From a bacterium (GTDB taxonomy: Bacteria > SZUA-182 > DTGQ01 > JAFGSM01), in the NCBI GenBank assembly GCA_049472355.1, contig JBLIRP010000002.1, positions 35,252 through 99,251 of the forward strand: a stretch of DNA of 64,000 bases. The letters are read 5' to 3'. The position numbers and the translations under genes were made by a program. Below are positions 7,953 through 35,028 of the stretch, piece after piece; within the stretch, counting starts at the first letter, position 1, and each line of letters starts with the position of its first letter. The notes beneath the pieces were generated by a model that was not told the origin of the DNA, made no database searches, and worked only from the letters and a program-made list of their open reading frames with translations.

Positions 7953-8023
7953 TGGGGATTGAAATCCTTTTTGTAAGGCCATGGAAAAGCGGTCCATGCG
8001 TTGATAAGGATTAATAATGTATA

Positions 8024-8959
8024 TCAGGCCATAAATAAAGAGATTTCCAATTTTTCCATGATCTTATATATGGGTTTTTCCTTATGTTTAATAATGGTCA
8101 GAGCGGCATCCGCCATTTGGCATACCTCTTTAACCTTTGCTTGAGAAAGATCGGTTTTTTTCAATCTAAAAGGCAATTGCTGCAGAAATGATTGATCGGA
8201 TTCAAGTCTCATGGAAGCAATCAAAGGGATGATCTCAGAAAGTTGATTATATAAAATATCGCCGTTTTCAAAATCAAAAGGAAAACTCCCAAAGGACACG
8301 ATCACTTCCTGTCCGATCCGTTGCATCTCATTTTCGACAATTCCGGCATTTGCTCCTTGCCATGTCTTATTAAAAATCATCATCGCAATCTTCAGATCCA
8401 GGCCAATGGATTCTAAATCTTCTTCCTTCTCCGGTTTTCCGGAAGGGGGCATTCTCTCCTTTAAATCCTGTCTCAAGGCCTGGAAAAATCGGGTGAGAAA
8501 ACGCTCTATATTCATTGAATTCAAAAGCGTCTCATTCAAAGGAAGCAATTCATTCACCACCTGAAAAAATTTGTGTTTCTGGCTTGATCTTACATTAAGA
8601 TAACCCAGGAAATACCCAAAAGAAATGACAGGATCGAAATGGATCAGGCATTGCATGATCCGGTGAGGAAAACCTTCTTTATTTACCTTTTCAAGGCTAA
8701 AGAGAAGAATGGGTACTATTGATTCGGCATCCTGCCCCTGAATGGTTTCCATTGCGGCTTGCGCATTATCTTTGTTGTCCGATGAAAGAAATTGAGCCAT
8801 GGTCGCCTTGCTTGAAGATGACAGCCGCTTTTTTGTTTCTCTCTTTAATGACTCTCTTGATCGTATAAGGGCAAAGAGTCCATCAAGCCAAGGGAAAAGA
8901 TCCAATTTACGTTCTTTCCATTGAGATTCCAAATCGTTAAAATCCAATTCGATTTTCAT
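8024..8959 (-). CDS. Hypothetical, helical (HEAT-like) protein
   Basis: 311-codon ORF in AT-rich DNA; no family recognised. Confidence 0.65.
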   Translation of the reverse strand: MKIELDFNDLESQWKERKLDLFPWLDGLFALIRSRESLKRETKKRLSSSSKATMAQFLSSDNKDNAQAAMETIQGQDAESIVPILLFSLEKVNKEGFPHRIMQCLIHFDPVISFGYFLGYLNVRSSQKHKFFQVVNELLPLNETLLNSMNIERFLTRFFQALRQDLKERMPPSGKPEKEEDLESIGLDLKIAMMIFNKTWQGANAGIVENEMQRIGQEVIVSFGSFPFDFENGDILYNQLSEIIPLIASMRLESDQSFLQQLPFRLKKTDLSQAKVKEVCQMADAALTIIKHKEKPIYKIMEKLEISLFMA

Positions 8960-9387
8960 AAGAGCCCTTTGATGAGATTATTATTCATAGACGATCTGAA
9001 TATGATAAAAATAAAAAAAATGGCGCGCGCCGCCCTTTTAGCGATCATGAATTACCATAGATTCGCCATATTTTTTATTGAAAATCGACAACTATGATTG
9101 ACGACCCAAGAAAATTTCCTGGTCCGTAGTATAACAAAAACAACCGCTGATTTAAAAAATCTTGAAAAATTGCTCGTAAAAATGTCAGAATCAGTGCTCG
9201 ATTTCCCTTGGAAATCAACGGCCAAAATGGTCTGGGATACGCACTTGACAAGGATTGCGACTTAATATATAAGAAAAGCGGCCCTTTTACAAGGGTTCAG
9301 CATCGGAATATATTTAGCATTTACTGCATATCGTCAATAAATCCACTTTCCCTTAAGTCTGAAAATATAGCAAATCAAAATATCGGC

Positions 9388-9416
9388 TTGACATTTACCT
9401 TATAATGACATATTCT
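9388..9416 (+). promoter_or_regulatory. Sigma70-type promoter
   Basis: TTGACA-17bp-TATTCT; a second TTGACA-17bp-TATAAG lies at 9245-9273. Confidence 0.55.
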
Positions 9417-9497
9417 AACAGTTCGAATTAGTATTCACGAAACCATGAAAAGTGATGCACCGAGTCACGGAGAGGAGCATAGGAACGAATTCTCTCA

Positions 9498-9586: not shown

Positions 9587-9657
9587 TGTGCATCACATTT
9601 TTGTGAATTATCCATAATTTTAAAAAACTTTGGCCTTCAAGAAGAAAGAGTCAATGT

Positions 9658-10656
9658 ATGAAGACAATAATATTTGTTGGATTTATTTTATTAGGATTTA
9701 TCCCAATCATTATTATTTTAAATCTTTTTCTTTACAAGCTCTATCATAATTTTGCCGAAAAATCATTCGAAAATAACAATTGTATCGTTCTTACAAATGA
9801 GAAAATATGTGATGTTCTTGAAAATTGCAGTCCTTCGAAATCAATTATGATTTTTAAGTCTGCAATTTGTGACAATTGTGAAGTTGAAGGTTTGAGATAT
9901 TACACAAAGTATCCGTTTGGGTCCAATATTGTTACGGCTCATGATAATCATAGAAGAGCGATTATTGCCTTTAACATTGGGCAGATGCTTTCAAAAGGAA
10001 AATTAGATCATGATGATATGAATTTATGTGCCGATATTCTCATCTGTTTAACGAATTATACAAAAGAGACTTACTACACGCAGCTTTTTGCATGGCAAAG
10101 CTTAGTTAATTTGTTTTATTTTCAAAAAGAGGCATTACTTGATCGTATCACCATTGATTATATAAAAGCCAGTATTACAAGAAATTTTCAGACAGGTATC
10201 GGGCCTATTAAATTTATTTTTGATATCAAAGCCCATAAAAGTATGAAAAAGAATTCAGAGGACTTTATCAAGGAAATAATACTGTTTGCTATAAGACATG
10301 CAGCGATGCCTCTGCGTGCGCTTTTGGTGTTCAAATTGAATAAAAGTCCTCATTTTGACCAGACTCAAAAGACCGAATATATGAAAAATTTGCCCAAGAA
10401 TCGCGAATTTGAAAGGTTTTTAATGCAGATGAAGGTTCTATCCTTTGGTTTCGCTCGGGAGGAATTAGAGGAAGGGATAAAAAATCTTGGTTTGCAGCCG
10501 CCCCCATATTCCAGTAAAACGACTGAAGGGGAGATCGTCCAACTTTTACTCAAAGATTTCATTGAAGAGATCTACGTGCCTGTATCCTATTTGATGCACA
10601 ATTATGATCGCTGGGATATACCGAGGCATCAGTCGGGAGATTTCTTATGGTATTAG
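9658..10656 (+). CDS. Unrecognised membrane-anchored protein, paralog 1
   Basis: N-terminal TM helix; colinear with 33784-34779 along its whole length. Confidence 0.85.
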   Translation: MKTIIFVGFILLGFIPIIIILNLFLYKLYHNFAEKSFENNNCIVLTNEKICDVLENCSPSKSIMIFKSAICDNCEVEGLRYYTKYPFGSNIVTAHDNHRRAIIAFNIGQMLSKGKLDHDDMNLCADILICLTNYTKETYYTQLFAWQSLVNLFYFQKEALLDRITIDYIKASITRNFQTGIGPIKFIFDIKAHKSMKKNSEDFIKEIILFAIRHAAMPLRALLVFKLNKSPHFDQTQKTEYMKNLPKNREFERFLMQMKVLSFGFAREELEEGIKNLGLQPPPYSSKTTEGEIVQLLLKDFIEEIYVPVSYLMHNYDRWDIPRHQSGDFLWY

Positions 10657-10753: not shown

Positions 10754-11227
10754 TTATTCCGAATGAGAAGCGGCCCGGTAGAGTTCGATCGCTGATTTTT
10801 TAAGATCCGCCTCAGCGGCCTTTTCATCAAAGCCCACTCTTCCTACCTGGCCTTCCAGCCAGTTCTGAACCCTTTCCCTGGCGAGAACGGCCAAATCGAC
10901 CTCTGCCTCCCGAGTCACCTTTTCGGCCCCGAATGAAAGCACGGTGACCCTGTTATTCTTAACCTCCAGGAATCCGCCGGCAACAACGACCCAATGGGCC
11001 TCTCCATCCTTTTCATATCGAAGGGGTGCAATAGGCAAGCGGACCAACATAGCGGCATGGTCAGCCAGAATACCGATATATTTCTCTTTGGTCAGTTCGC
11101 CTTCCTCCTGCTCACCTTCCAGGTCCCTGACCACCACAATGTCTATTTCATCATCCTTCAATACACACTTTTCAGGAGTGAGCACTTCGAGGGATATTTT
11201 TCCCTTCCCTTTTTTCAGCTTAGCCAT
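10754..11227 (-). CDS. atpC: F1 epsilon subunit
   Basis: LEVLTPE, IGILADHAAML and VAGGFLEV motifs; acidic insertion. Confidence 0.92.
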   Translation of the reverse strand: MAKLKKGKGKISLEVLTPEKCVLKDDEIDIVVVRDLEGEQEEGELTKEKYIGILADHAAMLVRLPIAPLRYEKDGEAHWVVVAGGFLEVKNNRVTVLSFGAEKVTREAEVDLAVLARERVQNWLEGQVGRVGFDEKAAEADLKKSAIELYRAASHSE

Positions 11228-11244: not shown

Positions 11245-12693
<1,449 letters not shown>

Positions 12694-13647
12694 TTAGAAT
12701 GCTGTTTGTGATACAGACTCTTGCTCGATTACTCTGGCTGCGCTAAGAATGCCTAATAAATCCAGGGTGATTAAGTCCCTTCTCATTCGATTATATTGGA
12801 TACCCATTTCATGTAACTTTTCTGCGGCCCGGTCCGAGGCATCTTCCATGGCCATCATCCGTGCGCCCTGCTCACTGGCATATGATTCCAATAGCAGATC
12901 AAAGATCTGTATCTTGAAATACATGGGGATCAATTCCTTCAAAATGGTGAGGGAATCCGGTTCGTAGATCCATTTGATGCGTGCGGTTTTATCCTTTGTG
13001 GTCTGCTCTTCAAGACCGAAACTGAACGGCAGCAGCTTGATCACCTTGGGTTCACGTTTGGCGGGTCCATGAAACTTTGTATAGGCACAGTATATCTCAT
13101 CGATATTCTTGTGCAGAAAGAGATCGGTCATATTCATGATCAGAGACAAGGCATCCGATATGGAAACACCTTGCTCCGACCAGGGTTCGATATTTAATAT
13201 CGGAAACGGCGTATTTTTTTTAAAAAAACGCTCACCTCTGAGCCCTTTGATCCAAACACCAACCTCGGCATTCTTATTCTTTCTCAAAATAGTATCCAAA
13301 AAAATCTGAGTCGTTTTGCCTATCCGGCCATTATAATTGCCGCACATACCAATATCCGAAGCAATGACGAAAACGATAATCCTGTTTTGTTTACGCTTTT
13401 TAATTAATAGAGGTGATATTTCGGTCATTACCTCTTCGGAAAACATATCCTTCTCAGAAAAAAGCGCGATCTCGGATTGGATTAAGGCGATTTCCCTCAT
13501 TCTTTCAGCGAACATGCTCAGCGTGGCCGCCTTAAAACGCGTCCTGGCCAGCTTTGCCGCCGCCACAGTGGACATGGTCTCAGTGGTGCCTTTGATATTC
13601 TCAACACTTCTCATTCTGTTCTTTAAATCAATCAACTTCTGTGACAT
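12694..13647 (-). CDS. atpG: F1 gamma subunit
   Basis: TM..VAAAKL, SDIGMCGNYN, SEQGARMMAME.A, YNRMRR..IT. Confidence 0.95.
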   Translation of the reverse strand: MSQKLIDLKNRMRSVENIKGTTETMSTVAAAKLARTRFKAATLSMFAERMREIALIQSEIALFSEKDMFSEEVMTEISPLLIKKRKQNRIIVFVIASDIGMCGNYNGRIGKTTQIFLDTILRKNKNAEVGVWIKGLRGERFFKKNTPFPILNIEPWSEQGVSISDALSLIMNMTDLFLHKNIDEIYCAYTKFHGPAKREPKVIKLLPFSFGLEEQTTKDKTARIKWIYEPDSLTILKELIPMYFKIQIFDLLLESYASEQGARMMAMEDASDRAAEKLHEMGIQYNRMRRDLITLDLLGILSAARVIEQESVSQTAF

Positions 13648-13661
13648 AATTGATACCCGCT

Positions 13662-15473
13662 TTAGACAAATTGCTTTTTGAACTCAGCAATGATTTCCCT
13701 TAAGCCTGAATTGATCTCCGGGGTCAAATCCTTCTTTTCCTGAATCATGTCCATGATATTCTGATAATTCTGATGAGCAAAAGCCACCAACCCCTTCTCG
13801 AACTCCCCGACCCGTTTTACAGGAATATCATCCATCAGGCTGTTGACCACCGCGTAAAGCACCAAGGCCTCCTCTGCCAACGGCATAGGCGCATACTGAA
13901 TCTGTTTTAATAATTCACGCCCCCTTTCCCCTCTGGCAAGCTGGGCCTTTGTGGCCTCATCCACCTCTGCACCAAATTTTACAAAGGCCTGCATCTCATG
14001 ATATTGAGCAAGGTCTATTCTCAACCTTCCGGCGATCTTTTTGATGATCTTGGTTTGCGCTGCACCACCGACCCTAGATACCGACAAACCGACATTAATG
14101 GCCGGCCGAAAGCCCGTATTAAACAAACCGGATTCGAGATATATCTGGCCATCCGTAATCGATATTACATTGGTCGAGATATATGAGGTGACATCCCCGC
14201 CCAGTGTCTCGATGATCGGTATGGCGGTCAACGACCCCCCGCCTTTTTCCTTACTCAGTTTGGCGGCCCTTTCCAACAATCTTGAATGCACATAAAAAAT
14301 ATCACCCGGATAGGCCTCCCTGCCGATAGGTCTCTTCAAGAGAGCCGACATCTCCCTGTAAGCCACCGCATGTTTGGAAAGATCGTCGAAAATAACCAAC
14401 GCATCCCCGCCCTGCTCCATGAACTCCTCACCGATGGCGCAGGCAGTATAAGGCGCCAGGTATTTAAAGGCGGTCTGCTCATTGGCTAGCGCAGCGACAA
14501 TAATCGTATGGTCCAATGCCCCCTCTCTTCGCAAGACCTCCACGACCTTGGCCACGGCTGCGGCCTTCTGACCGATGGCCGCATAGACACATATCAGATT
14601 GTTGCCCTTCTGATTTATTATGGTATCTATGGCCAGGGTGGTCTTTCCGATCTTCCTGTCGCCGATAATCAATTCCCTCTGGCCGCGCCCTATGGGGATC
14701 ATTGCGTCTATCGCCTTTATCCCGGTCTGTACCGGTTCCTTTACAGGCTGGCGCGTCACCACACGGGGAGCGATCCTTTCCACTAATCGATAGCTCGTGG
14801 TGAGGATCTTGCCTTTACCATCGATGGGCTGACCGACAGCGTTCACTATCCTGCCGATCATTCCCTTCCCAACAGGAATCTCCAACTGATGGCCGGTACA
14901 AACAACCTTGGTTCCTTCCTTAATATCTTCTTCAGCTCCTAGTAAAATACAACCTACTGCATCCTGCTCCAAACTAAAGGCCAAACCGTAAACGCTTCCG
15001 GCAAATTCAACCACTTCCATAGAACCCACGTTCTCAAGGCCCGCGACCCTGGCGATTCCGTCGCCGACCTGGAGGACAATCCCCTCCTGGCGCATGTCCT
15101 CAATCTTAAAGGTCGGTTTCGTGGCTTCTATAATCCGCCGTAGTTCCTTGGTAATGTCCTCTGTTTTCAATTGTTGGACATCGCCCTTCAATTCCATAAA
15201 CTTTCTGTCTAATTCACTTACAAAACTCTGCTTGACATCAAGACTGATCTTCTTGTTTCTGTCAAGAAACAGCATTGGGCTTTCCTGTTTAGCGTCCGTA
15301 AATACCTTGATCTGTATTTTCTTTCCCGCAATCTTGGAAAGCTCTTGCTCCAAATTCTCCACAAAATCGGATCTATAAACAGTCGGGCTCAACAAAACCA
15401 AAGGTTGACTGGCGTTATTTAAAGCCTCCTTTAAACCTTCCTGTTTAGCTTCCATCTGTTTAACATTCTCCAT
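13662..15473 (-). CDS. atpA: F1 alpha subunit with ~100-aa delta-like N-terminal extension
   Basis: [38 protein letters not shown]; canonical alpha N-terminus only begins near residue 100. Confidence 0.97.
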
Positions 15474-15868: not shown

Positions 15869-16267
15869 TCAAATGATCAGAATCAATGCGACAACCAGGC
15901 AATAAAGACATAATGCCTCAATGATGGCCATACCGATCAACATGGTCATAAAAAGCTTTCCCTGGATCTCGGGCTGTCTTGACATACCTTCCAATGAGGC
16001 CATTCCGAACTTGGCAATCCCCAGGGAGGCGCCGAATGCACCCCAACCGAGCAATATGGCTGCAGCTACTGCCTTTAAAGCCTCAACCCAGGCGACTTCG
16101 CCACCCTTTGTTGTTACGATAGCTGCGGATTCTTCCGCCCATAATGCCAAGGGAGATGACAAAGCCAGTAGAATCGTATTGACAAATACAAAATAAATGG
16201 TTTTTTTGGACCGTATAACCCTTATAACCCTGTTCTTTGTGGAATTGTATAATGATGCAATAGACAT
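15869..16267 (-). CDS. atpE: F0 c subunit with N-terminal leader
   Basis: SRQPE loop and IIEAL carboxylate; ATG 16267 follows SD AAGGAGG; leader ends ALWA-EE. Confidence 0.93.
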   Translation of the reverse strand: MSIASLYNSTKNRVIRVIRSKKTIYFVFVNTILLALSSPLALWAEESAAIVTTKGGEVAWVEALKAVAAAILLGWGAFGASLGIAKFGMASLEGMSRQPEIQGKLFMTMLIGMAIIEALCLYCLVVALILII

Positions 16268-16332: not shown

Positions 16333-16812
16333 TTAGGATGCCTGCCGTAGACTGTCCAATATGACCTTCTCTACAAGTTCCTTATGACCGTCCTTCTTCG
16401 CCAGATCCGGAAGCGCCCTGTAAGCGGCTGAACTGACCAGATCGATCAATTTCAGATTCGTCTCCTGGAGCAGTTCCTCCCTCTCCCTGGCGATTTCAGC
16501 ACGGGCGTTTTCTATGATCTTGTCGGCCTCTTCCTTGGCCTTTGCGATGATATCATTTTTCATCTTTTCCGTTTGGTTCAAAATCTTCTGTGCATCTACC
16601 CTGCTTTGAGCAAGAATCTCATCCCGATCCCTCAATGCCTTCTCTTGTTCCTCTTTGGCGATTGCACGTTGCCGTAACCCCTCCTCGATCTTTTCCTTTC
16701 TTGCATCCAATATCTCCATTATGGGTTTGAAGAAGAATTTTTTCATAAGAAAAAGAAGGATAAAGAAATTGACAACTAAAAATATTGTTTTTGTAAAGTC
16801 AAAGCCTATCAT
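16333..16812 (-). CDS. atpF: F0 b subunit
   Basis: VNFFILLFLMKKFFFKPI..ILDARKEKI then coiled coil. Confidence 0.93.
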   Translation of the reverse strand: MIGFDFTKTIFLVVNFFILLFLMKKFFFKPIMEILDARKEKIEEGLRQRAIAKEEQEKALRDRDEILAQSRVDAQKILNQTEKMKNDIIAKAKEEADKIIENARAEIAREREELLQETNLKLIDLVSSAAYRALPDLAKKDGHKELVEKVILDSLRQAS

Positions 16813-16878: not shown

Positions 16879-18159
16879 TTAATGTACGCCTAATTCTTCC
16901 TTGAAATAAAACAGACTCAGCATAACAAAGACCAAGGTCTGTATAATCGCGAAAAGGACATCCATGCAGAAGATCATAAATGGAATAAACAAGGGAACTA
17001 CAAAATAATATCTCTTGATTGCAACGTCAGTAACCATCGAAAGCACACTATGCTCGCCAAATATATTACCAAAAAGTCGCAGTGAAAGTGAAAGAAGTCT
17101 TGCTCCATTATCAACAAGATGCAGCGCAATGAGGAACAAAACAATTATTTTTACAGGAGCCTGTTTTAAGATCCCGAAGGCTATGTTTAATAATTTTGAT
17201 ATAGGCATCCAAACAGCGGATAAAATCTTTTTATGAAAAGTTAAAGCCCTATTCAAATACCGTAAAATAAAGAAAACAATCAAAATAAGTGAATACATAC
17301 TGACGATATTAACGATTACGGTATGCTTGAAGGGTATAAAAAGAATGAACATGATGCCGATACACATAAGCAATGTGCCAATGCCGTAAAAAATCGAATA
17401 TTTGACGAATGAAGCGTCCTCCCCGTCTTCCAATCCCGAGATCCTCAGGAAAAAGCCGACCATGGACTCCGCAAGACACTGAATTCCCCCTGGAACATCA
17501 TCTCTCTGTAGCCTTGATCGTATCCAAAAACCGAATGCCAGCAATAAAACGGTCGCCGCCACACAATAGACAGCCATCAGTTGAAATGGCAAGGATAATA
17601 ATACGGCAATATTATCGATCAAATAGAGAATCAAGAATGGAATCACGAAGAGCTTCCACATGAAGGAACCTTTTTTGGACTGCGTCCTTGAGCCTTGCCC
17701 CTCATGCCTAAAAACCTCTTCCTCATCCGAGGCCTCTTTTTTCCCAAGCCCTGGGATTGGGTCCAGCCATAATTTGGCCGCCTTTTTGGGTCCATTTAAT
17801 TTTATATTGTAATACTGTAAGCCGATGACAACGATCAAGGCCAATGCAAAGGTGTTGCTCCAATCACTGGTTGGCGGATGTGCATGAGGAATTATGAGAA
17901 AAAAATTGGAGATTAAGATAAATAGAACAAAGGTACCCAGAAACGGAAGTAAGTGAGCCAGCTTTTCCTGCCCCAGCTCCGTCCTTATAATGTTGTCCAG
18001 GGATTCTACCAGAACCTCGGCAATATTTTGAACTGAGCCGGGCGCGCCATCCTTTTGCCTGTTTTTGATCGCTAAATACGAAAAGATGAGAAGAATTGCC
18101 GATGTAATTGAACAATAGATTATTTCATAGATCCACGTTAAACCAAAATGAACATGCAT
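16879..18159 (-). CDS. atpB: F0 a subunit, enlarged (426 aa) by internal duplication
   Basis: PG.VQN.AE, PPTSD, LSLSLRLFGNIFGEH (essential Arg), IQTLVF. Confidence 0.92.
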   Translation of the reverse strand: MHVHFGLTWIYEIIYCSITSAILLIFSYLAIKNRQKDGAPGSVQNIAEVLVESLDNIIRTELGQEKLAHLLPFLGTFVLFILISNFFLIIPHAHPPTSDWSNTFALALIVVIGLQYYNIKLNGPKKAAKLWLDPIPGLGKKEASDEEEVFRHEGQGSRTQSKKGSFMWKLFVIPFLILYLIDNIAVLLSLPFQLMAVYCVAATVLLLAFGFWIRSRLQRDDVPGGIQCLAESMVGFFLRISGLEDGEDASFVKYSIFYGIGTLLMCIGIMFILFIPFKHTVIVNIVSMYSLILIVFFILRYLNRALTFHKKILSAVWMPISKLLNIAFGILKQAPVKIIVLFLIALHLVDNGARLLSLSLRLFGNIFGEHSVLSMVTDVAIKRYYFVVPLFIPFMIFCMDVLFAIIQTLVFVMLSLFYFKEELGVH

Positions 18160-18270: not shown

Positions 18271-18299
18271 ATGATATCAATAATACCGTTTTTTGTCAA
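18271..18299 (-). promoter_or_regulatory. Sigma70-type promoter of the atp operon
   Basis: Minus strand TTGACA-17bp-TATCAT about 110 bp upstream of atpB. Confidence 0.75.
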
Positions 18300-18420
18300 C
18301 ACCCAAATGAACCAATTCCAAAACATAATCACGTCATTCCTTTTCCCCTCATCGCATACATTTGAGGAGGATTGATCATTCCATAGGATTTCAATACCTA
18401 TTTTTATATAATATTAAATT

Positions 18421-18965
18421 CCAACTGCCCGGCGTCCTCACAGCGATTTGTACCGTCACCGGTGCCAAGGCATCATCCCTATCAGCGGCCCCTTCCCCTC
18501 ACGCAGGGGGCTTTCTGACAGGTCGCAGCATGCGACTATCATCCCGGATTCCTTTGCATGAGCGATCCCTGCACGGCCTCTCCCCATGAATATCCGTTTC
18601 GTGCAGGTCCTCACGTTGTCAAGCCCTGCACTCCGTTCTCATACGTCCATCACCTCTTACGATCATTTACCAATCGACCATTACGAACCAGCGCCTTTTC
18701 CCGCACACCAGCTCAACCGCTTTCCTCTGGTGCGCAGGTCTTATGCGTAAAACATTCTTATGTAAGAATTCGTACGCCTCTTCCGGAAACCTTGGATTCG
18801 CCGATCGTATACGATATTTTGCATCCGCACAGATCCCCGTCGCTGGACTACTTCGAATTTGCCCTTTTGGCCTGATATCCGACCTGTCCAAAAAAATGAC
18901 GCCTAAAGGAACGGTCGGGACCATCCATACCTTCAGGGACGGGAAATCTGAACCACGCACCATTT
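18421..18965 (-). ncRNA. Putative large structured non-coding RNA, family not recognised
   Basis: GC-rich patch in AT-rich flanks with at least 8 stems that use G-U pairs on the minus strand and a GUGA tetraloop; no convincing ORF. Confidence 0.55.
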
Positions 18966-19000
18966 TATCCCCTTCGATATAATTTTTATTATTTTAAAAG

Positions 19001-20489: not shown

Positions 20490-20495
20490 GATACT

Positions 20496-21638: not shown

Positions 21639-21991
21639 CAGCACAATAATGCAGTAAGTAGTCTTTTCTATGACCTATTATCATTGCAATTCGTTACTTT
21701 TTGATATCGCTAACTAGTATGGCTAAAGAATAAAAATAAGGATAAACATCCTCTTTTTATATATGATCGATTCTATTCATTTATATTCATATAAGATCCA
21801 CCTCAAAGTCAGTTTAAAAAATCTATTAGAGAATATCGATTCTCAAATGTAATAGACTGTTTGTACAGAACTTTTTATTTTTTTGATCGTACATTCGTAT
21901 TGGGCAGGTTATAGCTTTTGATGATTGTTTATAGTAATTAAATTCATATAGATAATGAGATAAACAATATGATGGAGTATAAGGTGATATT

Positions 21992-24086: not shown

Positions 24087-24197
24087 GCCTTTTTTGCTCA
24101 ATGTAGGCCATAAATTGAATACAAAAAGGATGTAATTAAAAATTTGATTCAAAACTAATGCCTTTCATTCATCTAATGTGAGCGAGGTATACCTTAA

Positions 24198-24719
24198 ATG
24201 AAAAAATATTCTTTATCCCTGCTATTATTACTCATAGTTGTTTTTTTTCTCCTTTATGCCTGTTTTCACGTAAAATGGTCAGAGATGCTTTCCCCCGGAG
24301 ACCTTTCCTTGGCACATGCGGATATGGATTTGTCAGAGGACTGCCAGGCGTGCCATACGAAGGGTAAACAGATCGATAACGGAAAATGTCTGGACTGCCA
24401 TGCGGAGATACAAGACAAAATGGATTTAAATCAGGGTCTCCATAGCCAGGCGTCAAGTGAATGTTTAGATTGTCATTCAGAGCATCATGGAAAGGAAACC
24501 AACATTGCTTATTTCGATGAAGATAACTTTGATCATGCCAAGACAGGGTGGTCACTGGAAGGAAGGCACACGTTGTTGAAATGTGAAGCCTGCCATATGA
24601 AAGACTCCTTCTTGCTTGACAAGGCAGATTGCATTCATTGTCATAAGGATTTTCACGAAGGCGAGTATGGCACTGATTGTGCTGAATGCCACGATCAGGA
24701 TTCATTCAGAATGGAATAG
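24198..24719 (+). CDS. Hexaheme c-type cytochrome
   Basis: Six CxxCH motifs (CQACH, CLDCH x2, CEACH, CIHCH, CAECH); SPG.LS.AH; N-terminal signal/anchor. Confidence 0.93.
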   Translation: MKKYSLSLLLLLIVVFFLLYACFHVKWSEMLSPGDLSLAHADMDLSEDCQACHTKGKQIDNGKCLDCHAEIQDKMDLNQGLHSQASSECLDCHSEHHGKETNIAYFDEDNFDHAKTGWSLEGRHTLLKCEACHMKDSFLLDKADCIHCHKDFHEGEYGTDCAECHDQDSFRME

Positions 24720-24739: not shown

Positions 24740-24934
24740 TTATTGATCAGGCTGCTGATAGCCCTCATCCTCTTCGAAATTTATCAATTCCTTTTTATAC
24801 TGTAACTCCTTTTCAATAACATAATTTTTCAAGGCCTCTATGATCACATCCTTTATTGGTATAGCATCCTTCTCTGCAATAAGCTTAAGCTGTTTATAAA
24901 TATTGTCATCAAGATTATTGATTTGAATCTTCAT
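24740..24934 (-). CDS. Small ribbon-helix-helix-like protein
   Basis: MKIQINNLDDNIYKQLK..AEK....I...IIEAL; SD GAGG. Confidence 0.65.
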   Translation of the reverse strand: MKIQINNLDDNIYKQLKLIAEKDAIPIKDVIIEALKNYVIEKELQYKKELINFEEDEGYQQPDQ

Positions 24935-25505: not shown

Positions 25506-27221
25506 TTATTCAGCCAATATCCGCGAAATTCTTCGATTGATGTAGTTGACCTTTTTCTTTAATCTATATTTTGTATGGATTCTGGATTCAAGCGTTCTCG
25601 CGGACTTTGTTATGACACGCACCCTGCGTGCCAAGCCTTTTGGTATCTCTTTGAATAAATTTAACATGCAAAGCAAAAGACAAAACAGCCACGGTTTATT
25701 TAATTTAGTCGCTATGTAACTCGCGCCCTTCTCCCTTCTTTTAAGAGCCAAGTCCAATGTTCTCCCCGCTAAACTGGAGGTAAACCATTCATCCGCATTG
25801 ATCATTTTCAATAATGTCTGAAAGGCGGCTATCTCTTCTTTTATCCGCTTCTTGATTTCCTCCGGTGGCTCGTTTGTTGGTTCTTGGGTAAGTAATATTT
25901 GCAGGTACTTGATAAGAAATCGGACCCTTTGCATGACTTCGTATTTTTCTCTGTTTGATAGTTCTCCTTCCAGTTTTTCGGCCAAATTTAGACGAAGTTC
26001 CTCTATCAAATCCAGCTCGTAGGCACTTGAAAACTTGAATCTTTCTCCAAACAGGGAAGGGATCCCAACAAAAATATCGGCAACCTCCTGCAATCGGTAT
26101 ATTTGGAGCAACTTATTGAAATTCTCCCAACACGGGAGCATGTTTGGTGTTTCTTTCGGAACGTTCGCATTGTTCCAAACCGTACTGCATGGATATAGTT
26201 TTAAGAATTGATCTATATCCACATGGTCGACATCGAGATTATATTCCTGGGTTACCCTTGGGAAGCAGGACTTGGTCAGATTCAAGAATTCCTCCCAGTT
26301 CGGGTATTTGTTCAGAAAACGGTCCAGCACGACTCCGGCTATAAGGATCATATGAAATTTAATTGTACCGAGCTCCATTTTGATATCTGCATGAATATCA
26401 CCAAGGCCGTCGGTAATCATAATGATCTCGGCCTGTCTCATATCGGGATCGTTTTTTATGTCTTTGATGGCCGTTAGTATAGCCTCATTTATTTTTGTTT
26501 CATAACACTCGACCGTATGCAGGTTAATCAGATATCTTATGAGTTCCTTTATTTGTCCGGATTTCGTAATCTGCTGCAACTGGCCCATCTCCTGATTAAA
26601 AAAACGAAAGTATATCTGAGGGCTCTCCTTCCGGACTCTTCGAAGATATTCAATACAGATTGCCTTGGCAGCATAGAGCTTGTTCAGTTGGTCACCTTCC
26701 ATGGAGCATGAATTATCAAATAGGATATAGACCTTTTGTCTCTTGTTTAATTCCTTGTCCTTTCCATAAACCAGATCAGAAACAGATAAGCCTTCGGGAT
26801 CGATGAATTTTTTCCTGTATAACTCATGATTGATGAGTTTTTTGTAAAAAAGATCCTCTGTATTGATCAAAAATTCTCTGGGCAGGATATGCAATATTTG
26901 GCTTGTTGAAGTCACTTTTCCAATATCGACATTATCAGCCAATTCTGAATCTATAATCATATCATTTCTATCGATTTCCTCCTTCACTTTGTTGTCTTCG
27001 AAGATCCTATTTCTCTCGAGAATGGGCGCCATTCTCCCCTTGATTGGATACGCGGTATCCATTGAAAAAAGGCACCGTGCAATAAAAAATATCTTTATCC
27101 ATTCCTTTGGTAGACCATCACTAACATTCCGGATATCATCCGGAAAACAATCCGGTATGTTCAAAATATCTAAATAACACTCCGGCTCTATAAAGAACCA
27201 ATGGTTAAGGAATTCATTCAT
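25506..27221 (-). CDS. VWA-domain protein (ViaA/CoxE-like)
   Basis: MIDAS ILFDNSCSM, IIMITDG; downstream of a MoxR-type ATPase. Confidence 0.85.
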   Translation of the reverse strand: MNEFLNHWFFIEPECYLDILNIPDCFPDDIRNVSDGLPKEWIKIFFIARCLFSMDTAYPIKGRMAPILERNRIFEDNKVKEEIDRNDMIIDSELADNVDIGKVTSTSQILHILPREFLINTEDLFYKKLINHELYRKKFIDPEGLSVSDLVYGKDKELNKRQKVYILFDNSCSMEGDQLNKLYAAKAICIEYLRRVRKESPQIYFRFFNQEMGQLQQITKSGQIKELIRYLINLHTVECYETKINEAILTAIKDIKNDPDMRQAEIIMITDGLGDIHADIKMELGTIKFHMILIAGVVLDRFLNKYPNWEEFLNLTKSCFPRVTQEYNLDVDHVDIDQFLKLYPCSTVWNNANVPKETPNMLPCWENFNKLLQIYRLQEVADIFVGIPSLFGERFKFSSAYELDLIEELRLNLAEKLEGELSNREKYEVMQRVRFLIKYLQILLTQEPTNEPPEEIKKRIKEEIAAFQTLLKMINADEWFTSSLAGRTLDLALKRREKGASYIATKLNKPWLFCLLLCMLNLFKEIPKGLARRVRVITKSARTLESRIHTKYRLKKKVNYINRRISRILAE

Positions 27222-27240
27222 GGATCAAAGGCCTCAGTTT

Positions 27241-28737
27241 TTATTTGGACTGCCTAAAATGAACATCATTGAATCTTTTGACATCGTGTTCAAACCCCTC
27301 GATCAGTTCCAATGTCTCCTTCTTTATAGCCATCTCTTTGAGCAAAGAACAGCTTTCTTCGAAAATCTCAAGCAAATGAATTAATCTTGATTTGCTCGGT
27401 CGGAACCCGATCTTATTTACAAAAGTCATCAATCTGTTTTTAATACTTGCCTCTACAAAGGAACGTTCAATTTCGTCTATGATCAACCCGAAATTCTGAT
27501 GTTCTACCAATGCACCCGGATCCTTGGCGGATTTTATTGTTCGAAAAATACTCATAATATTAAATAATCGATTTAGAAGCTGCTTATCGTCGAAAAAATA
27601 TTTCTTCGTTGCATCAATGATCCCCTTTAAACGCCTTTTTTCTTCTTCCTTTCCCACGATACAGATCAAATAATACAGGTTATTGAGGTCTCTTTCCTCC
27701 ACTACTGCACGTCCGTCAAGAATTGCAGATGCCCTCAGCAGATTCTGTGTCTTTGCCGCCGTTCTGTCGCTGATCATGAAATTATAGCCGCCCTCAATCC
27801 TCTTTGACTCTTCCGTATATTTACGAATTATATAATTCTTCAGGAAAAGGATATACTCCGGAATCTTTATGGACTGTGTTTTGATCAACAGTTTAATATG
27901 ATTAAGTCTTTCCAAATCCAGTGTAACATCTGATTGTCTTATTTTACCTACATTTTTTCTATAAACCTGGTCTATTGACAATTTGTAGTATAGGTTTTTG
28001 TTTTCCATGATATAGCACTTGTATAAAAACCGATCCAGGACAGCCTCCAGCATTTCGGTCGCTCGAATATAATTTGAAGCGGCAATAACAGTATTGAGAG
28101 GAGAATCAACTATCTGTTCACCATTTACCAGTCTTTTCTCATTCAGCAGGGTAAGAAGGGACCTCAACAACATATCGTTAGCATCAAAGATTTCATCAAG
28201 AAAAGCAAAATCAGAGGCAACAATCGAACCCTTAATATTGTGTATCAACTTCCCTCTTTTGAGATCATCCATGTTATAGGCACCAAACATATTATCCGGC
28301 ATCGTATCTTTGGTAAGTTGCTTCTGAAATAATTTTATATCTTCGAAGGATGAAAAGATTTGTCGTGCGAGAAGGCTTTTCGCCATTCCAGTTCTTCCCA
28401 AAATTAACTGGTGCTCACCGGTCAAAATGGCATAAAAACTCTGGCGAACGATCTCTTCTCTATCCACTATGTTTTCGCAAACGAAATTGATAATATGGTT
28501 TATCTCTCCGGTTGTTTCAAACGCAATTTGGTAGTCCGGATGGTCTATTTCGAGTATCTTATTCAAGTCCAAATCAAGACCTGTTTTTACCTTCTCCTGC
28601 TCAAGGCCCGTCATGTCATTGACTGAAGGATACTTTTGAAGCCTATCCTCCTCTTCATTCGCTTCCGTTTCTTCCGCACGGCCAATGTCTTTATAAAGAT
28701 AATCTGAATCTATGCTCATAGTCTTTTCCTTTCCCAA
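27241..28737 (-). CDS. MoxR/RavA-family AAA+ ATPase
   Basis: GEH.LILGRTGMAKS, AFLDEIF, LLTLLNE, ASN, AVLDRF. Confidence 0.92.
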   Translation of the reverse strand: MGKEKTMSIDSDYLYKDIGRAEETEANEEEDRLQKYPSVNDMTGLEQEKVKTGLDLDLNKILEIDHPDYQIAFETTGEINHIINFVCENIVDREEIVRQSFYAILTGEHQLILGRTGMAKSLLARQIFSSFEDIKLFQKQLTKDTMPDNMFGAYNMDDLKRGKLIHNIKGSIVASDFAFLDEIFDANDMLLRSLLTLLNEKRLVNGEQIVDSPLNTVIAASNYIRATEMLEAVLDRFLYKCYIMENKNLYYKLSIDQVYRKNVGKIRQSDVTLDLERLNHIKLLIKTQSIKIPEYILFLKNYIIRKYTEESKRIEGGYNFMISDRTAAKTQNLLRASAILDGRAVVEERDLNNLYYLICIVGKEEEKRRLKGIIDATKKYFFDDKQLLNRLFNIMSIFRTIKSAKDPGALVEHQNFGLIIDEIERSFVEASIKNRLMTFVNKIGFRPSKSRLIHLLEIFEESCSLLKEMAIKKETLELIEGFEHDVKRFNDVHFRQSK

Positions 28738-29844: not shown

Positions 29845-32800
29845 CTATTGCGTCCTTTTTTTGGATGACGGTAATTTGAGTCCCAAGGAATTTATCTTCC
29901 TAAAGAGGGTTGCCTTGTGAATACCTAATTGGCGGGCTGTTTTAATTCGACTCCAGTCATTTTGTCTCAATATATTCATCAAAAAGGCTGCTTCCATTTT
30001 CATAAAGGTTGTGAGATCTCTGTTCTTTGAATAGTCAATAGATAGGGAGGCGAATAACGACTCAGGCAGATCCTCTTTTCCTATCTTTTCAGATTGACAT
30101 AGGACGAAGCTCCGCTCTATTATATTCTCCAATTCCCTGATATTACCAGGATAGTCATAGGACAATAGACATATCATTGCTTCTTCAGTTATCCCTGTGA
30201 TCTTTTTTCCCCGCTGCCTATTCAATTGTTCTATGAAATGATTGACCAACAAAGGCACGTCCTCCAGGCGTTCTCTCAATGGAGGCAGATCCAGTCTGAC
30301 CACATTTATCCGGTAATATAAATCCTCCCTGAACCTTCCCTCTTTAACCAGATCCATGAGATTTTTGTTGGTTGCGGTTATAATACGCACATTTGCCTTG
30401 ATGGTCTTTACGGAACCCAACGGCTCATATACCCTTTCTTGCAGGAACCGCAAAAGACGAACCTGCATCGCCGGTGATATATCGCCTATTTCATCCAGAA
30501 AAAGGCTCCCTCCCTCTGCAATAGCAAATCGACCCATTTTATCCTTTTTGGCGTCGGTAAAGGCGCCTGCCTTGTAGCCGAACAATTCCGATTCCAACAG
30601 GGTATCAGGGAGAGCGCCGCAGTTGACGATAATAAAGGCTTTGTCCTTTCTAGGGCTCAAATTATGAATGGCTTGTGCGATTAAATGCTTCCCGGTTCCA
30701 CTTTCTCCATGTATCAAAACCGTGCTCACACTTTCAGCGACCGAAGGAAGTATGTCGAAAAGTTCCCAGAGTTTTTTATTCCGCCCGATGATCCCCTCAA
30801 ATCTAAAGCTCTGGCCATCGTCCTTACCCTCAAGGTCGTATTTTATGCCTGCAAAATCCCTATGTCCCTTTTTCTCTTCTCTCTTCACAGGGAACTGGTA
30901 AGGCTCAGAAGCGCTATATCTGCCCGTCTTTTGCCTGGGCAGGAGAATCCCTGTCTTTCCGTTCTCATATACTGATTCCTTGATACCATGAAGCAAGACA
31001 GCAATCTTTATGACGTTGCCCTGCTCGTCCCCAATAGGATAAAAACTCATATGCAACTCATCGTCACCCGACCTATTTTCATATTCGACCGTCTTGGCAG
31101 AATGTATGGTCTCCTCGATCTTTGCCTTTATCTTTTCCGAGCGATCCGGCGAAAAGAGATTGCAGAAATCCCAGCCCAGAATATCCTCAGTCTTTTTACC
31201 AAGATATTTTTCGGCCCTTTCATTTAATGCAACAAGCACACCTGTTGTATCCAATAAAAAGGCGGAATCATTAAAGGCATTCAAAAAGGCCTTTTCTGTC
31301 TCAAGTCTGTCTTTTTCGATTTCAATAGACGCCTTCTTGTCTGTAATATTCTTGATGATAATCAGTTTGGCTGCAGGATTTCCATGGGTATCCAGAATAT
31401 AGGACCTTAGTATTTCCGACAAAAATGGCTTGCCATCCGTTCCGGGATACCAAACCCCGGCAGAAAACTCCTCCTTTCCATTGTTTTGAAATTCATTCAT
31501 ATCGATATATTTCTTCTGTTGAGGAGAAAGACAATCGTACAAATTTCTTCCAATTATTTCTTTTTCCTTTAAGCCATGCATGGTAACAAATGCCTTGTTA
31601 ACGTACAGCAAATCATCATTCATATCCATTATGGCTATTCCTTCTTCACTATGCTTCAAGAAGGACGAAAATATTTCAAAACGTTCTTCCATCTCCTGGT
31701 TATCGGTTCTTTTTCGAACAGATGAAATCAAATATTTATTTACACCTATTTTAAAAATACTCGTTGATCCACAAGCATTAATTATTTTTCCATTCTTATG
31801 AAGATAGCTGGTTTCAAATATCGTGGAACCTTTTTGCATAGTTCCTTTTTTGATCCCAGCCGTTGTTTCAGAATCTTCTTCAGACTGCAAATCCTTGAGT
31901 CTCATGCACGCCAACTCTTCAACCGAATAGCCAACGAGGTCAGAAAATGCATGATTTGTATAGATAAAGTTCCCTTGCATATCGGTCATAAAAAAACCTT
32001 CAGCAAAGATATCGAACATCTTCCTGTTTCTTAAGATTTCCTTCTTCAGGACACCATGGATTTTCGGAAAGTCGCTGATGTCCTTGAAATTTTCGATAAT
32101 TCCTATAAATTCACCACCATGTCCGTAGAAAGGCATCGCTGTCAGGACGCACGGAACCTTTGATACGTCCTTGACTTTGACTGTGATCTTTTTTTCCATG
32201 CGAGCCAATTTATCCTCCGGAAGCTTTATCATGGGACAATCACTGGTATGACATAAGGAGGAAGTGAATAATTCATAGCACTTCTTGCCTTTTAATTCAT
32301 CCCTCGGTATATCGATTATTTTCAAGAGCGTGTTGTTTGCCTGAAGCATATTGAAATTGATATCTATTATTCCCATGCCGTCGGCCGCTGTATTGAATAT
32401 TTGATCGATTTCCGCATAGGCCAATCTGATCGTTTCCTCCGCAGCCCTCAATTCAGCCTTCTCCTTGTCGAGTAATGTTCTTGTTAGAAGAAGATTATCG
32501 TTATTTTCCACCACCTTTTTCTGCATCTCTTTATGAGCCTTACGAAGCATCTCGACATCACGCCTTTTTTCGGTGATGTCTCTGCAATGCGTAAACATAC
32601 CTTTAAATTTTCCAATTTCATCACAAATTGCGGTTATTTTACACCAGATTGGTATCTGCTTACCATTTTTAGTTATTATTTCGAGTTCAAGCTCGGAATT
32701 ACCGTATTCCTTGATTTCCGGTATCTTTTGTATGAATAACTTCTTATATTTTTCAACCATACAATTTTCTAACATATTGCCAATAATCTCTTTTCTATTG

Positions 32801-33675
32801 ATACCTGTCAGTTCAATAAAAGCATCATTGCAATCAAGGACAACTCCGTCTGTATCAAGGACGACTATTCCATCTGAAGCAATCTTGAATAATAGCCGAT
32901 ATTTGTTTTCACTCTTTCTGAGTGCCAGTCCCATCTTTTTATGCTCAATTGCATTGGCGAAAATCTCTCCCACGATTCTCAAAAGTGCAATTATATCGAT
33001 CTCCCATGACTTTTTGTTTCGAATCGAAGCGAAACCGACAAATCCAATAAAAGATCTTCCACAAAACATCGGTACATTGATGAGCGATTGGATCTTATGG
33101 GCTTTCAAATATTCCTTTATCTCGATCAAAAGGTCCTGTGAAAAATCAAGGTGCAGGAGACTCTCTTTTTTAATCTTCTTGTCAAACCACGGAAATTCGT
33201 CTTCGATTAAGCCTCCTTTGATTCCCTGAATCTGCGGCTTCACCTCTTCAGCACACCATTCATAGACATCGCTGATACTTTTTCCATCATCACTAAAAAG
33301 AACTACATACGTTCTATCGACATCAACAAAACGACCTATGGTTTCCAATGCCTTATTTATTGCTTCATCTGTCTCCTCGGGCAAGAGTTTAATAAAATCC
33401 GTAGATAGTGTCGCAATAAGCTTTTCCAATTCGGCGCGATAGTGCAAGGCTTCCTCGGCCTTTTTTCGTTCCAAGACTTCCTGTCTTAGCTGGGTGTTGG
33501 CTGCAATTAAGTCAGCGGTCTGCTCGGTTATCCTTTTCTCCCGATCATCATATTCCCTGCGCAGCGCCTGCCTGAGCACATCCTCAAATCTTTGGTGCTT
33601 GGCCACCTGCATTTCCAACTGGGAAATATGTTTCTTAAGGTCTTTATTTTCCTTATTCTTATCCTTTTTTTGCAT
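29845..33675 (-). CDS. Sigma54-dependent enhancer-binding protein with GAF and multiple PAS domains
   Basis: GESGTGK, ESELFG, GAFTDA, FLDEIG, FREDLYYR, PGNIRELEN, Fis-type HTH; one GAF and about 5 PAS repeats. Confidence 0.95.
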   Translation of the reverse strand: MQKKDKNKENKDLKKHISQLEMQVAKHQRFEDVLRQALRREYDDREKRITEQTADLIAANTQLRQEVLERKKAEEALHYRAELEKLIATLSTDFIKLLPEETDEAINKALETIGRFVDVDRTYVVLFSDDGKSISDVYEWCAEEVKPQIQGIKGGLIEDEFPWFDKKIKKESLLHLDFSQDLLIEIKEYLKAHKIQSLINVPMFCGRSFIGFVGFASIRNKKSWEIDIIALLRIVGEIFANAIEHKKMGLALRKSENKYRLLFKIASDGIVVLDTDGVVLDCNDAFIELTGINRKEIIGNMLENCMVEKYKKLFIQKIPEIKEYGNSELELEIITKNGKQIPIWCKITAICDEIGKFKGMFTHCRDITEKRRDVEMLRKAHKEMQKKVVENNDNLLLTRTLLDKEKAELRAAEETIRLAYAEIDQIFNTAADGMGIIDINFNMLQANNTLLKIIDIPRDELKGKKCYELFTSSLCHTSDCPMIKLPEDKLARMEKKITVKVKDVSKVPCVLTAMPFYGHGGEFIGIIENFKDISDFPKIHGVLKKEILRNRKMFDIFAEGFFMTDMQGNFIYTNHAFSDLVGYSVEELACMRLKDLQSEEDSETTAGIKKGTMQKGSTIFETSYLHKNGKIINACGSTSIFKIGVNKYLISSVRKRTDNQEMEERFEIFSSFLKHSEEGIAIMDMNDDLLYVNKAFVTMHGLKEKEIIGRNLYDCLSPQQKKYIDMNEFQNNGKEEFSAGVWYPGTDGKPFLSEILRSYILDTHGNPAAKLIIIKNITDKKASIEIEKDRLETEKAFLNAFNDSAFLLDTTGVLVALNERAEKYLGKKTEDILGWDFCNLFSPDRSEKIKAKIEETIHSAKTVEYENRSGDDELHMSFYPIGDEQGNVIKIAVLLHGIKESVYENGKTGILLPRQKTGRYSASEPYQFPVKREEKKGHRDFAGIKYDLEGKDDGQSFRFEGIIGRNKKLWELFDILPSVAESVSTVLIHGESGTGKHLIAQAIHNLSPRKDKAFIIVNCGALPDTLLESELFGYKAGAFTDAKKDKMGRFAIAEGGSLFLDEIGDISPAMQVRLLRFLQERVYEPLGSVKTIKANVRIITATNKNLMDLVKEGRFREDLYYRINVVRLDLPPLRERLEDVPLLVNHFIEQLNRQRGKKITGITEEAMICLLSYDYPGNIRELENIIERSFVLCQSEKIGKEDLPESLFASLSIDYSKNRDLTTFMKMEAAFLMNILRQNDWSRIKTARQLGIHKATLFRKINSLGLKLPSSKKRTQ

Positions 33676-33783
33676 TGTAGTAACTCAGATCACCAAAATA
33701 GATTGAATAACATATCTTATTACCTAACCGCAGTATATCTTCATTGACCTCAGCACAGGCTCTATTTTAGCCCTATTATGGAT

Positions 33784-34779
33784 TCATACCCATAAAAAAT
33801 TTGTCTCATAGGCTCTGACATCATTCGCATTAAAGCTATGAAGCATATAGGAGGCTGGAACATAGAGTTCTTCTATAAAATATTTCGTTAAAATTTCCAC
33901 TATCTCGCCCTCGGTTGTTTTATGGGAGTATGGCGGTGATTGTAACCCAAGGTTGGTCAATCCCTCACTCAGTTCCTCTTTTGTAAAACCTCGGGACAAA
34001 TTATTCATATGCTCCAAAAAACTCTTTAGCTTAAGATCATTGGGTATTATTTTCATAAAATTCGATTTTTCAGAATGTTTAAAATAGGGGCTTTTGATAA
34101 GCTTGAATATCAAGAGGGCCACGAGAGGTGTGCTGCAATTCCCCAAGGTATAACAGATGGTATCGTTGATCAGAGAAACCGTTTTTGTATCAAGCCCCTT
34201 AACCTGCTTAATATCAAAAATGAACTTAACTACCCCGATTCCTGACATAAAATCCTTTGATATGAGAAGCCTAAGGGTATCCTGTCCCACCATTTCCATT
34301 AATGCGTTTTTTTTAAAGCGCATCAATCTGCTCAAGCTGTTCCACACGATAAGCTGCGTGTAGTGCTTCTCATTGCAGCTTCTTGCCAGGGTAAGAAGGA
34401 TGTCACTGCAACACTCCAGATCTCTATTTTGGATGACTTGTGCCGTGAGCATCACCCCTATCGTGTGAGCGATGAAGGCCTTGCGATGATTGTCATGTGC
34501 AGTAGTAATTTTTGAGCCAAAGGCAAACTTCGTGTAATATCGCACGCCGTTTACTTCTGAATGATCACATAGGGCAGACCTGAAAACCTGAAGTGACTCG
34601 GATAAATCCCCCCCTTTTAGGATATCTCCTATCCTTCTTCTGGTCAAGACTATATGGCCTCTGTTTTCGAATGTCCTTTCTTTTAAGAGACCATAAATGT
34701 AATACACAAAAAGGGATAGGATGCCTATGGCCGGGATGAGTGCAATTACCGCTAATCCAATAACCAATGCCGACAGCAT
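33784..34779 (-). CDS. Unrecognised membrane-anchored protein, paralog 2
   Basis: Colinear with 9658-10656; start MLSAL (ATG 34779) chosen because it gives 331 aa versus 332 aa for paralog 1. Confidence 0.85.
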   Translation of the reverse strand: MLSALVIGLAVIALIPAIGILSLFVYYIYGLLKERTFENRGHIVLTRRRIGDILKGGDLSESLQVFRSALCDHSEVNGVRYYTKFAFGSKITTAHDNHRKAFIAHTIGVMLTAQVIQNRDLECCSDILLTLARSCNEKHYTQLIVWNSLSRLMRFKKNALMEMVGQDTLRLLISKDFMSGIGVVKFIFDIKQVKGLDTKTVSLINDTICYTLGNCSTPLVALLIFKLIKSPYFKHSEKSNFMKIIPNDLKLKSFLEHMNNLSRGFTKEELSEGLTNLGLQSPPYSHKTTEGEIVEILTKYFIEELYVPASYMLHSFNANDVRAYETNFLWV

Positions 34780-35028
34780 CCATGTAATCCTTTTTCTAAA
34801 AACATCCGGGATGCAAATGAATGGGAATAAATTCGCCAAAAAGTAATTTAATGATATAATCAAGGAATAAATTGCTCATATCATGATTAGATCATAAATC
34901 AAAAAAACCCTCTTTTCAAATATAAGAATTGAAATGCGAAAAAAATCTGGTATACTATATTTTAGCAAATATTATTCACAATAATAATTTTTCATTTTCT
35001 ATTTCAATATGGTGAAAGGAGAATAATC

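Follow-up and report, generated by a model that had tools for sequence, protein, structure and literature searches.

Why would a bacterium with a canonical F-type ATP synthase carry a second atp operon that has no delta gene and encodes an enlarged alpha and an enlarged subunit a? The H+/ATP ratio sets the lowest membrane force at which ATP can be made, a standing question for energy-limited sediment microbes. Work from 2025 showed that stator number can double this ratio and predicted natural delta–alpha fusions (Ueno et al., PMC12229609). We analyzed such an operon in a 64,000-nucleotide (nt) stretch of a bacterial genome, hereafter the window (contig JBLIRP010000002.1 of assembly GCA_049472355.1, positions 35,252 to 99,251). 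An earlier note, drawn from the letters of the window, had described a non-canonical atp operon and singled out its delta–alpha fusion and long AtpB as worth pursuing; both pointers proved right. Judged by its genes, the locus is a second F-type ATP synthase, of a type common to one order of an uncultured phylum.

The window's own genome (G000; 148 contigs, labelled C) was compared with relatives. G003 and G004 belong to the same genus, G005 to another genus, and G007 and G010 to another family. Profile counts refer to 20 genomes of the phylum, and linkage counts to the 12 that carry the fusion operon; the relatives' assemblies are fragmented, so the linkage counts are lower bounds.

Subunits of the second ATP synthase

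The operon lies on the minus strand in the order atpB-F-E-A-G-D-C, and atpH is missing from it:

16879..18159, minus strand: atpB, 426-amino-acid (aa) subunit a with an internal tandem duplication (hhalign, short-a profile, Arg361)
16333..16812, minus strand: atpF, subunit b, 159 aa, of normal length and with no b–delta fusion (PF00430 and TIGR01144 above cut-off)
15869..16267, minus strand: atpE, subunit c with an N-terminal extension, signal-peptide-like by eye (likely start 16267, Shine–Dalgarno sequence upstream)
13662..15473, minus strand: atpA, alpha, 603 aa, in frame with a predicted delta C-terminal domain (roughly residues 20-95); GGAAGG precedes the first ATG
12694..13647, minus strand: atpG, gamma (PF00231)
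11245..12678, minus strand: atpD, beta, Walker A intact (TIGR01039 at 722.7 bits, cut-off 462.85)
10754..11227, minus strand: atpC, epsilon (PF02823; TIGR01216 below cut-off)

Genes for a, b, c, alpha, beta, gamma and epsilon are thus present with intact catalytic motifs, which places the locus among the F-type ATP synthases. Arg361 of a and the Glu of c are both there. PF00213, the model of a separate full-length delta, had no match in the window; its single match in the genome lies on C83. That contig carries the host's separate canonical operon (B-E-F-H-A-G plus the beginning of D, where the contig stops), whose existence the earlier note had proposed to check. V/A-type ATPase genes lie on C31.

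An accessory second operon that lacks atpH, accompanies a canonical one and was laterally moved resembles the N-ATPases, which extrude Na+ (Dibrova et al. 2010, PMC2881411). These are described with the order atpDCQRBEFAG including atpQ and atpR, a long b fused to delta, and Na+ ligands in c (ESTxxY and a helix-1 Glu). The window differs in gene order and has no Q or R open reading frames (ORFs). Its short b scored 62.7 against TIGR03321, for which the cut-off is 224.7, and its c has the ion site EALCLY with Ile at the helix-1 position, so that the Na+ ligands and the second Glu are absent. All alt_F1F0 models fell below their cut-offs; alpha and beta exceeded the canonical NCBIfam ones (atpA, atpD). 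Membership of the N-ATPases is therefore excluded, and we give this explanation almost no weight. The enzyme is probably proton-coupled, because its ion site reads EALCLY, helix 1 contains neither Gln nor Glu, and, among solved structures, the c chain that matches best has EALTIY.

The N-terminal extension of c recurs in five aligned operons with a long a and in G013, and is not found in G004, G008 and G009. Other variation was seen among the relatives. In G007 and G010, epsilon carries a Pro/Asp/Met-rich repeat insertion of about 150 aa inside the beta-sandwich (L032:17687-18613, L012:12091-12999). G013 has a small gene pair between atpG and atpD (L039:5196-5823), the second member of which looks PIN-like by eye. 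The fusion operon lies at most about 15 kb from a V/A-type ATPase operon in G008, G010 and G011 (L036, L037, L041/L012).

The delta–alpha fusion

The alpha subunit is about 100 aa longer than solved alphas, and each of the 11 operons in the first alignment has the extension. Of the 20 phylum genomes, 12 carry the fused frame (11 of the 13 in the order, plus G013), as judged with a profile built from 11 of the 12 genomes that it then matched. Both genomes of the order that miss it are 63% complete.

Four tests, each modest by itself, agreed on the identity of the extension. In a profile alignment with the C-terminal domain of the lineage's own delta, it matched without gaps over 60 columns with a score of 22.0, against 15.5 for the reversed control and at most 16.2 for 30 column shuffles. 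The predicted model has the order beta-alpha-beta-beta-beta-alpha, which is the topology of the delta C-terminal domain (delta-C). A structure search gave 7 of 48,161 chains with Z≥5, all from F-ATP synthase entries, which we read as delta/OSCP from chain label and length. The top match, Bacillus PS3 chain 6n2y_I (Z 6.2, root mean square deviation 3.0, 68 aligned residues), covered residues 107-176, nearly equal to the delta fragment 105-178 that Ueno et al. fused. Finally, two distant homologues found via the extension profile (P0004, P0009) matched the C-terminal half of PF00213 with E values of 0.0013 and 0.0037, below the cut-off of that model. Taken together, sequence and model make it nearly certain that a delta C-terminal domain is fused in frame to alpha.

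Of the eight matches to the extension profile, P0005 and P0008 were discarded as repetitive false matches. P0007 is a 719-aa alpha from another lineage with two stretches that match the profile, that is, a tandem delta-C fusion.

In most of the 11 operons, the upstream ATG has a GGAAGG-like sequence before it, and the internal Met is not conserved. With a nonsynonymous divergence (dN) of 0.10 and a synonymous divergence (dS) of 1.53, the extension is, by this measure, under purifying selection. Three NCBI alpha records in the cluster have 511-512 aa, i.e., they are without the delta-like domain, and annotation therefore drops it: alpha is called from an internal start, and the fusion is masked in this genome group. 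No delta N-terminal domain was found, as only some 20 residues precede delta-C and the atpE–atpA gap holds no conserved ORF. Normal-length atpH is carried elsewhere in 10 of the 12 fusion genomes.

The duplicated subunit a

A profile of eight short relatives matched AtpB twice, at residues 3-195 (unit 1) and 198-426 (unit 2), and the N-terminal half aligned to the protein's own middle (hhalign 98.3%, E 2e-14). Unit 1 retains the N-terminal helices along with the motifs conserved in that region, and its copy of the Arg helix, at the end, is truncated. In unit 2, the N-terminal helices are degenerate and are followed by the intact Arg361 helix and the C-terminal helix. Arg361 is present in all 11 long forms compared, two of which are near duplicates; the equivalent position 193 is R in two, K in five, Q in two, T in one and S in one, and Asp-Asn 182-183 is invariant. 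The insert showed a dN of 0.19 against a dS of 1.58 between G007 and G010, by which the duplicated copy is under purifying selection.

The long a was found in six genomes of three families (G000, G005, G006, G007, G010 and G001, where the contig ends in atpB and the protein is partial). The same fusion operon has a short a in G004, G008, G009, G011, G012 and G013. Among 19 database proteins at E≤1e-40, 10 had this duplication, 8 were short, and one, P0020, was separately duplicated. We found no report of such a duplication in the literature, subscription journals lying outside the coverage; the broader literature searches yielded Ueno et al. and Zhang et al. (both 2025) as the sole relevant papers. 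In a metagenome scan with the AtpB alignment, none of at least 80 distant loci matched the extension profile or showed the duplication, a weak negative. Structure prediction was uninformative on the insert: the AlphaFold model had a predicted template modeling score of 0.28 and a mean predicted local distance difference test (pLDDT) of 56, and Foldseek returned only subunit a chains (E 0.005 or worse, 120-150 columns). A complex prediction of a residues 162-335 with two b N-termini scored 0.01 with an uncertain partner fold and was not used for or against any reading.

The duplicated half of a might be a second dock for a b dimer (b2), so that one channel is held by two stalks (e.g., a1b4 or a2b6), an unprecedented stator architecture. 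In solved enzymes, b is contacted by the part of a that is duplicated here (PMC12002316), and the copy keeps a PGxxQ-like motif and the invariant Asp-Asn. The duplication was found solely inside delta–alpha fusion operons in the searches made, and a separate a–a duplication exists in P0020. However, two motifs conserved in unit 1, ISN and PPTSD, are lost from the copy, which is only 47% identical among the long forms. We therefore regard a second dock as improbable.

P0020 is a 443-aa subunit a in which a near-complete tandem a–a duplication arose independently and more recently; both copies keep RLFGNIFGE. It is one member sequence on two contigs and, via P0036, appears to reside in a fusion operon. 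A natural multi-stalk lineage in which a was duplicated twice, once into a second b2 dock (the window) and once into a tandem a–a with two Arg helices (P0020), is a doubtful proposition. If it were true, stator number rather than c-ring size would be the evolving gear ratio, and the host would have an enzyme for low proton motive force beside its canonical one. Short a, duplicated a and tandem a–a are natural variants of one operon in this lineage, alongside a canonical enzyme, which makes stator architecture testable.

Number of peripheral stalks

The delta–alpha fusion is of an already known kind. Ueno et al. fused delta 105-178 to alpha in Bacillus PS3 FoF1 (PDB 9jc1) and obtained an enzyme with up to three stalks and a subunits, near two on average, and an H+/ATP ratio of 5.8, about twice the usual value; they name natural fusions in Acidaminococcus fermentans and in two UniProt entries (PMC12229609). 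As in these, delta-C stands at the N-terminus of alpha in the window, the delta N-domain is missing, and the operon has no atpH. Unlike the engineered fusion, that of the window is natural, its domain is highly divergent, and it belongs to a second operon beside canonical F-type and V/A-type genes. The order B-F-E, the internally duplicated a and the extended c are further differences. A natural two-stalk enzyme was solved from Chloroflexus aurantiacus (Zhang et al. 2025, PMC12002316). There too an altered delta provides a path to more than one stalk and a subunit, as predicted for the window; unlike in the window, where delta-C would sit on alpha, a free delta with a shortened N-domain dimerizes (a2 b4 delta2).

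Each of the three alphas would present a b2-docking site and the three-fold axis would stay uncapped. Because there would be three docking sites and no cap, multiple stalks could assemble: two or three b2 stalks, each with one a, on one c ring. More stalks would raise H+/ATP and allow ATP synthesis at low proton motive force or, in reverse, stronger pumping per ATP. The duplicated part of a may conceivably brace the stators or hold them apart, as an additional membrane module located behind the channel. We consider multi-stalk assembly of this enzyme likely. The best overall explanation, a natural second F-type enzyme with a fused delta-C and plausibly several stalks in an accreted mosaic block (see below), is in our view somewhat likely.

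Alternatively, the divergent fused domain could tether b2 at one alpha only. The product would be an ordinary accessory F-ATPase for pumping or particular conditions, limited to a single stalk by scarce b and a, or by a bulky long a that excludes further stalks. Three stalks were rare even in the engineered enzyme, whose average was about two (PMC12229609), the long a is 1.6 times the normal length, and the extension is too divergent for Pfam OSCP. On the other hand, the extension is kept in 12 of 12 operons under apparent purifying selection, and the operon encodes no complete delta that could break the symmetry. A single stalk is thus possible, though unlikely.

Returning to the multi-stalk enzyme with a fused delta-C, a number of results weigh against it. 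The window's own extension had no Pfam OSCP match and no delta match in PDB by sequence. Its alignment to delta reached an hhalign probability of just 5.5%, its model has a mean pLDDT of 57, and a Z score of 6.2 is middling; Foldseek with the model gave nothing at E≤0.001 and ranked delta second. No purified natural delta–alpha fusion was found in the literature consulted, and the delta encoded elsewhere in the host could attach to the fused F1 head as a cap. As for the long a, the long forms share a mean identity of 47% in the insert, against 75% and 79% in the core, and their operons do not form a single clade on the F1 tree (approximately unbiased test, p-AU 1.4e-4). Since six relatives have the same operon with a short a, the insert is not required for the fusion design.

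The AT-rich block and its genes

The operon lies in an AT-rich block of about 27 kb, bordered by pilin and outer-membrane genes on one side and lipopolysaccharide (LPS) genes on the other. Its GC content over 7980-35000 is 0.411, against 0.524 in the left flank, 0.566 in the right flank and 0.540 in the genome, in line with the earlier description of the block as lying between GC-rich pilin and LPS genes. The 31-kb low-GC run is the longest in the assembly; the next longest is 15 kb. Orthologous flanks differ strongly in GC within one genus (about 0.37 in G003 and G004 against 0.52-0.57 in G000; L003/L011, L114, L115).

Contigs from runs of three studies cross the junction of atpB and the non-coding DNA with zero differences, one of them being possibly the source of the window (X1, 15384-23109 and onward to 25103; X3, labelled marine sediment, 17134-19344; X5, 17994-20261). 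G001 is contiguous across the left junction, and G004 shares the gene order on the right. The block is not an assembly chimera at the junctions tested, and the possibility that the earlier note had raised in this regard falls away. The ends hold no tRNA and no integrase, and none of the repeats listed is an end-paired direct repeat; the same gene skeleton occupies the same site in G003 and G004, which argues against an integrative island. A single X3 contig (depth 3.7) joins 18379 to 25662 with 19 other letters between. The join may be chance and hints at a strain without the non-coding patch and the Fe-S module.

Besides the operon, the block contains the following genes:

8024..8959, minus strand: order-specific orphan, 311 aa, with a weak HEAT-repeat lead (ESM Atlas); often directly downstream of atpC in relatives
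9658..10656, plus strand: paralogue 1 of an unknown family, with an N-terminal hydrophobic helix; between atpC and the orphan in G000 and G001
19482..19940, plus strand: resolvase-like domain without the catalytic Ser motif; a 44% homologue precedes the Fe-S module in G006
20091..24719, plus strand: Fe-S/haem module, rearranged copy that has no NuoF-like gene and has lost the 2Fe-2S cysteines of NuoE
24740..24934, minus strand: ribbon-helix-helix (Arc-like) small protein; also next to VWA or MoxR in G004 and G006
25506..28737, minus strand: VWA protein and RavA-like MoxR AAA+ ATPase
29845..33675, minus strand: GAF/PAS sigma-54 enhancer-binding protein with many paralogues in the genome; syntenic with G004
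33784..34863, minus strand: paralogue 2 of the unknown family, a predicted alpha-solenoid, syntenic with G004 (57%); no family named

The AAA+ and VWA genes, the single enhancer-binding protein and the two paralogues near the block ends had all been correctly described. The paralogues are 46% identical. For paralogue 2, the ESM Atlas held no usable match, the genome search gave 6 of 41, and the related-locus search of genome contigs gave 0 of 38 candidates. In G007, a gene of this family adjoins the V/A-type ATPase operon. A Cys-rich 130-aa orphan lies upstream of MoxR (28827-29219) and has a 44% paralogue on C49.

The Fe-S module, present in 12 of the 20 genomes, consists across the order of ferredoxin-NuoE, NuoF, receiver-HoxU-like, membrane protein and hexahaem cytochrome c genes. 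All 10 other copies inspected include a gene of 615-640 aa, NuoF-like by Pfam in both that were scanned. The host's other copy, on C85, includes a gene of NuoF-like size; the window copy has none, and its NuoE-like part lacks the CxxxxC ligands. By gene content, the window copy is a deletion derivative of a module intact elsewhere in the same genome. The Fe-S/haem genes of the earlier note are hence real, and the catalytic subunit, whose absence it noted, was lost by deletion. The intact module of the relatives shares NuoE-, NuoF- and HoxU-like domains with NuoEFG/HoxEFU/HydABC-like diaphorases, from which it differs by the extra ferredoxin and receiver fusions, the membrane protein and the hexahaem cytochrome. 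The MoxR/VWA pair resembles the RavA-ViaA and MoxR-VWA chaperones in having a MoxR AAA+ protein with a VWA partner near respiratory genes (PMC3893208, PMC10585395); unlike RavA, the window's MoxR falls below the RavA cut-off, and the pair is tied to the operon in 3 of the 12 genomes.

The neighborhoods of the 12 operons varied widely. The orphan 8024-8959 lies within 5 kb in eight genomes, directly after atpC in five of them, and is a candidate accessory factor. MoxR/VWA occurs within about 10 kb in three, the Fe-S module nearby in two, and a gene of the unknown family on the same contig within 5 kb in three (G000, G001, G010). The full combination was observed in G000 alone; in G001 it is not assessable, as the contig ends in atpB. 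In G004 the flanks are the same and enclose a skeleton of orphan, atp operon, ribbon-helix-helix protein, VWA, MoxR, activator, paralogue 2 and response regulator, at a GC content of 0.37; the operon is of the short-a kind in the order B-E-F, and the site has no Fe-S module.

The alpha of the window is 68% identical to that of G004, 93% to that of G005 and 83% to those of G007 and G010. An unrooted alpha+gamma+beta tree of all 12 operons rejected the monophyly of the genus (p-AU 5e-36) and that of the long-a operons (p-AU 1.4e-4), pointing to replacement in place and module swapping. The operon and its neighbors have different nearest relatives and therefore were not inherited as one unit; on this evidence, the block is a mosaic and not one co-inherited system. 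At an old locus, the operon would have been swapped in from an AT-richer relative and a broken second diaphorase–cytochrome copy added, with MoxR/VWA and the orphans as frequent but dispensable neighbors.

Promoters and the non-coding patch

The operon is preceded by two features:

18271..18299, minus strand: sigma-70-type atp promoter, TTGACA-17-TATCAT with TG (11/12 match plus TG)
18410..18980, no strand: GC-richer non-coding patch of 570 nt upstream of the atp promoter, not supported as a structured RNA

TTGACA-type sites also lie upstream of atpB in G004, G006, G007 and G010. The patch had been taken for a large structured RNA, an interpretation that found no support. It has no Rfam match, its folding z is −1.96 for the whole region, and 9 of 114 random 570-nt genome segments fold equally well or better. 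The patch was found in 1 of 21 genomes, the window's own, and in none of the 20 others; six-frame and blastn searches of the genome and related loci returned the patch itself only, and an exact 24-nt scan of metagenome contigs returned 0. A proposed sigma-54 regulon fared no better. Allowing at most one mismatch to the −24/−12 consensus, we counted 4 sites in the window, where 3.48 are expected. Both of those that fall in the block have a mismatch and lie within genes, and none there is intergenic.

These results bear on the view that the whole 27-kb block is one energy- or redox-sensing system, with the Fe-S module and the ATP synthase both under the control of an RNA and the sigma-54 activator. 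Some linkage does recur: MoxR/VWA stands beside the operon in G004 and G010, the Fe-S module lies about 8 kb from it in G006, and a second G006 locus combines a resolvase-like gene and the Fe-S module with atpE/atpF remnants. The full set, however, occurs in 1 of the 12 genomes, the local Fe-S copy appears to be a deletion derivative, sigma-54 sites do not exceed chance, the RNA is unsupported, and the operon differs from its neighbors in nearest relatives. The neighborhoods largely refute a single system, which we consider very unlikely. What stands of the proposed co-inheritance is that the components recur in one order, some of them loosely linked; the idea of one inherited unit does not stand.

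In the second G006 locus (L112:5850-8947), a divergent atpE and a partial atpF accompany the Fe-S module and the resolvase-like gene, echoing the window. An RNA run (X15) gave contigs identical to 15570-16528 and 11407-11535, and none across 17.1-30.4 kb. This is at most a hint of atp gene transcription; as the data are contigs only and the run was chosen using this stretch, it says nothing about the non-coding patch. The only perfect sigma-54 consensus of the window lies outside the block, at 3765-3779, upstream of a pilin gene (3225-3701). Two mobile-looking elements were also seen. A palindromic dispersed repeat of about 90 bp (9494-9590), resembling repetitive extragenic palindromes or miniature inverted-repeat transposable elements, recurs on 14 or more other contigs of the genome. 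The second, a 190-bp element with 25-bp terminal inverted repeats (25066-25255), is present as a 92% copy in G001, and C113 carries a 74% relative.

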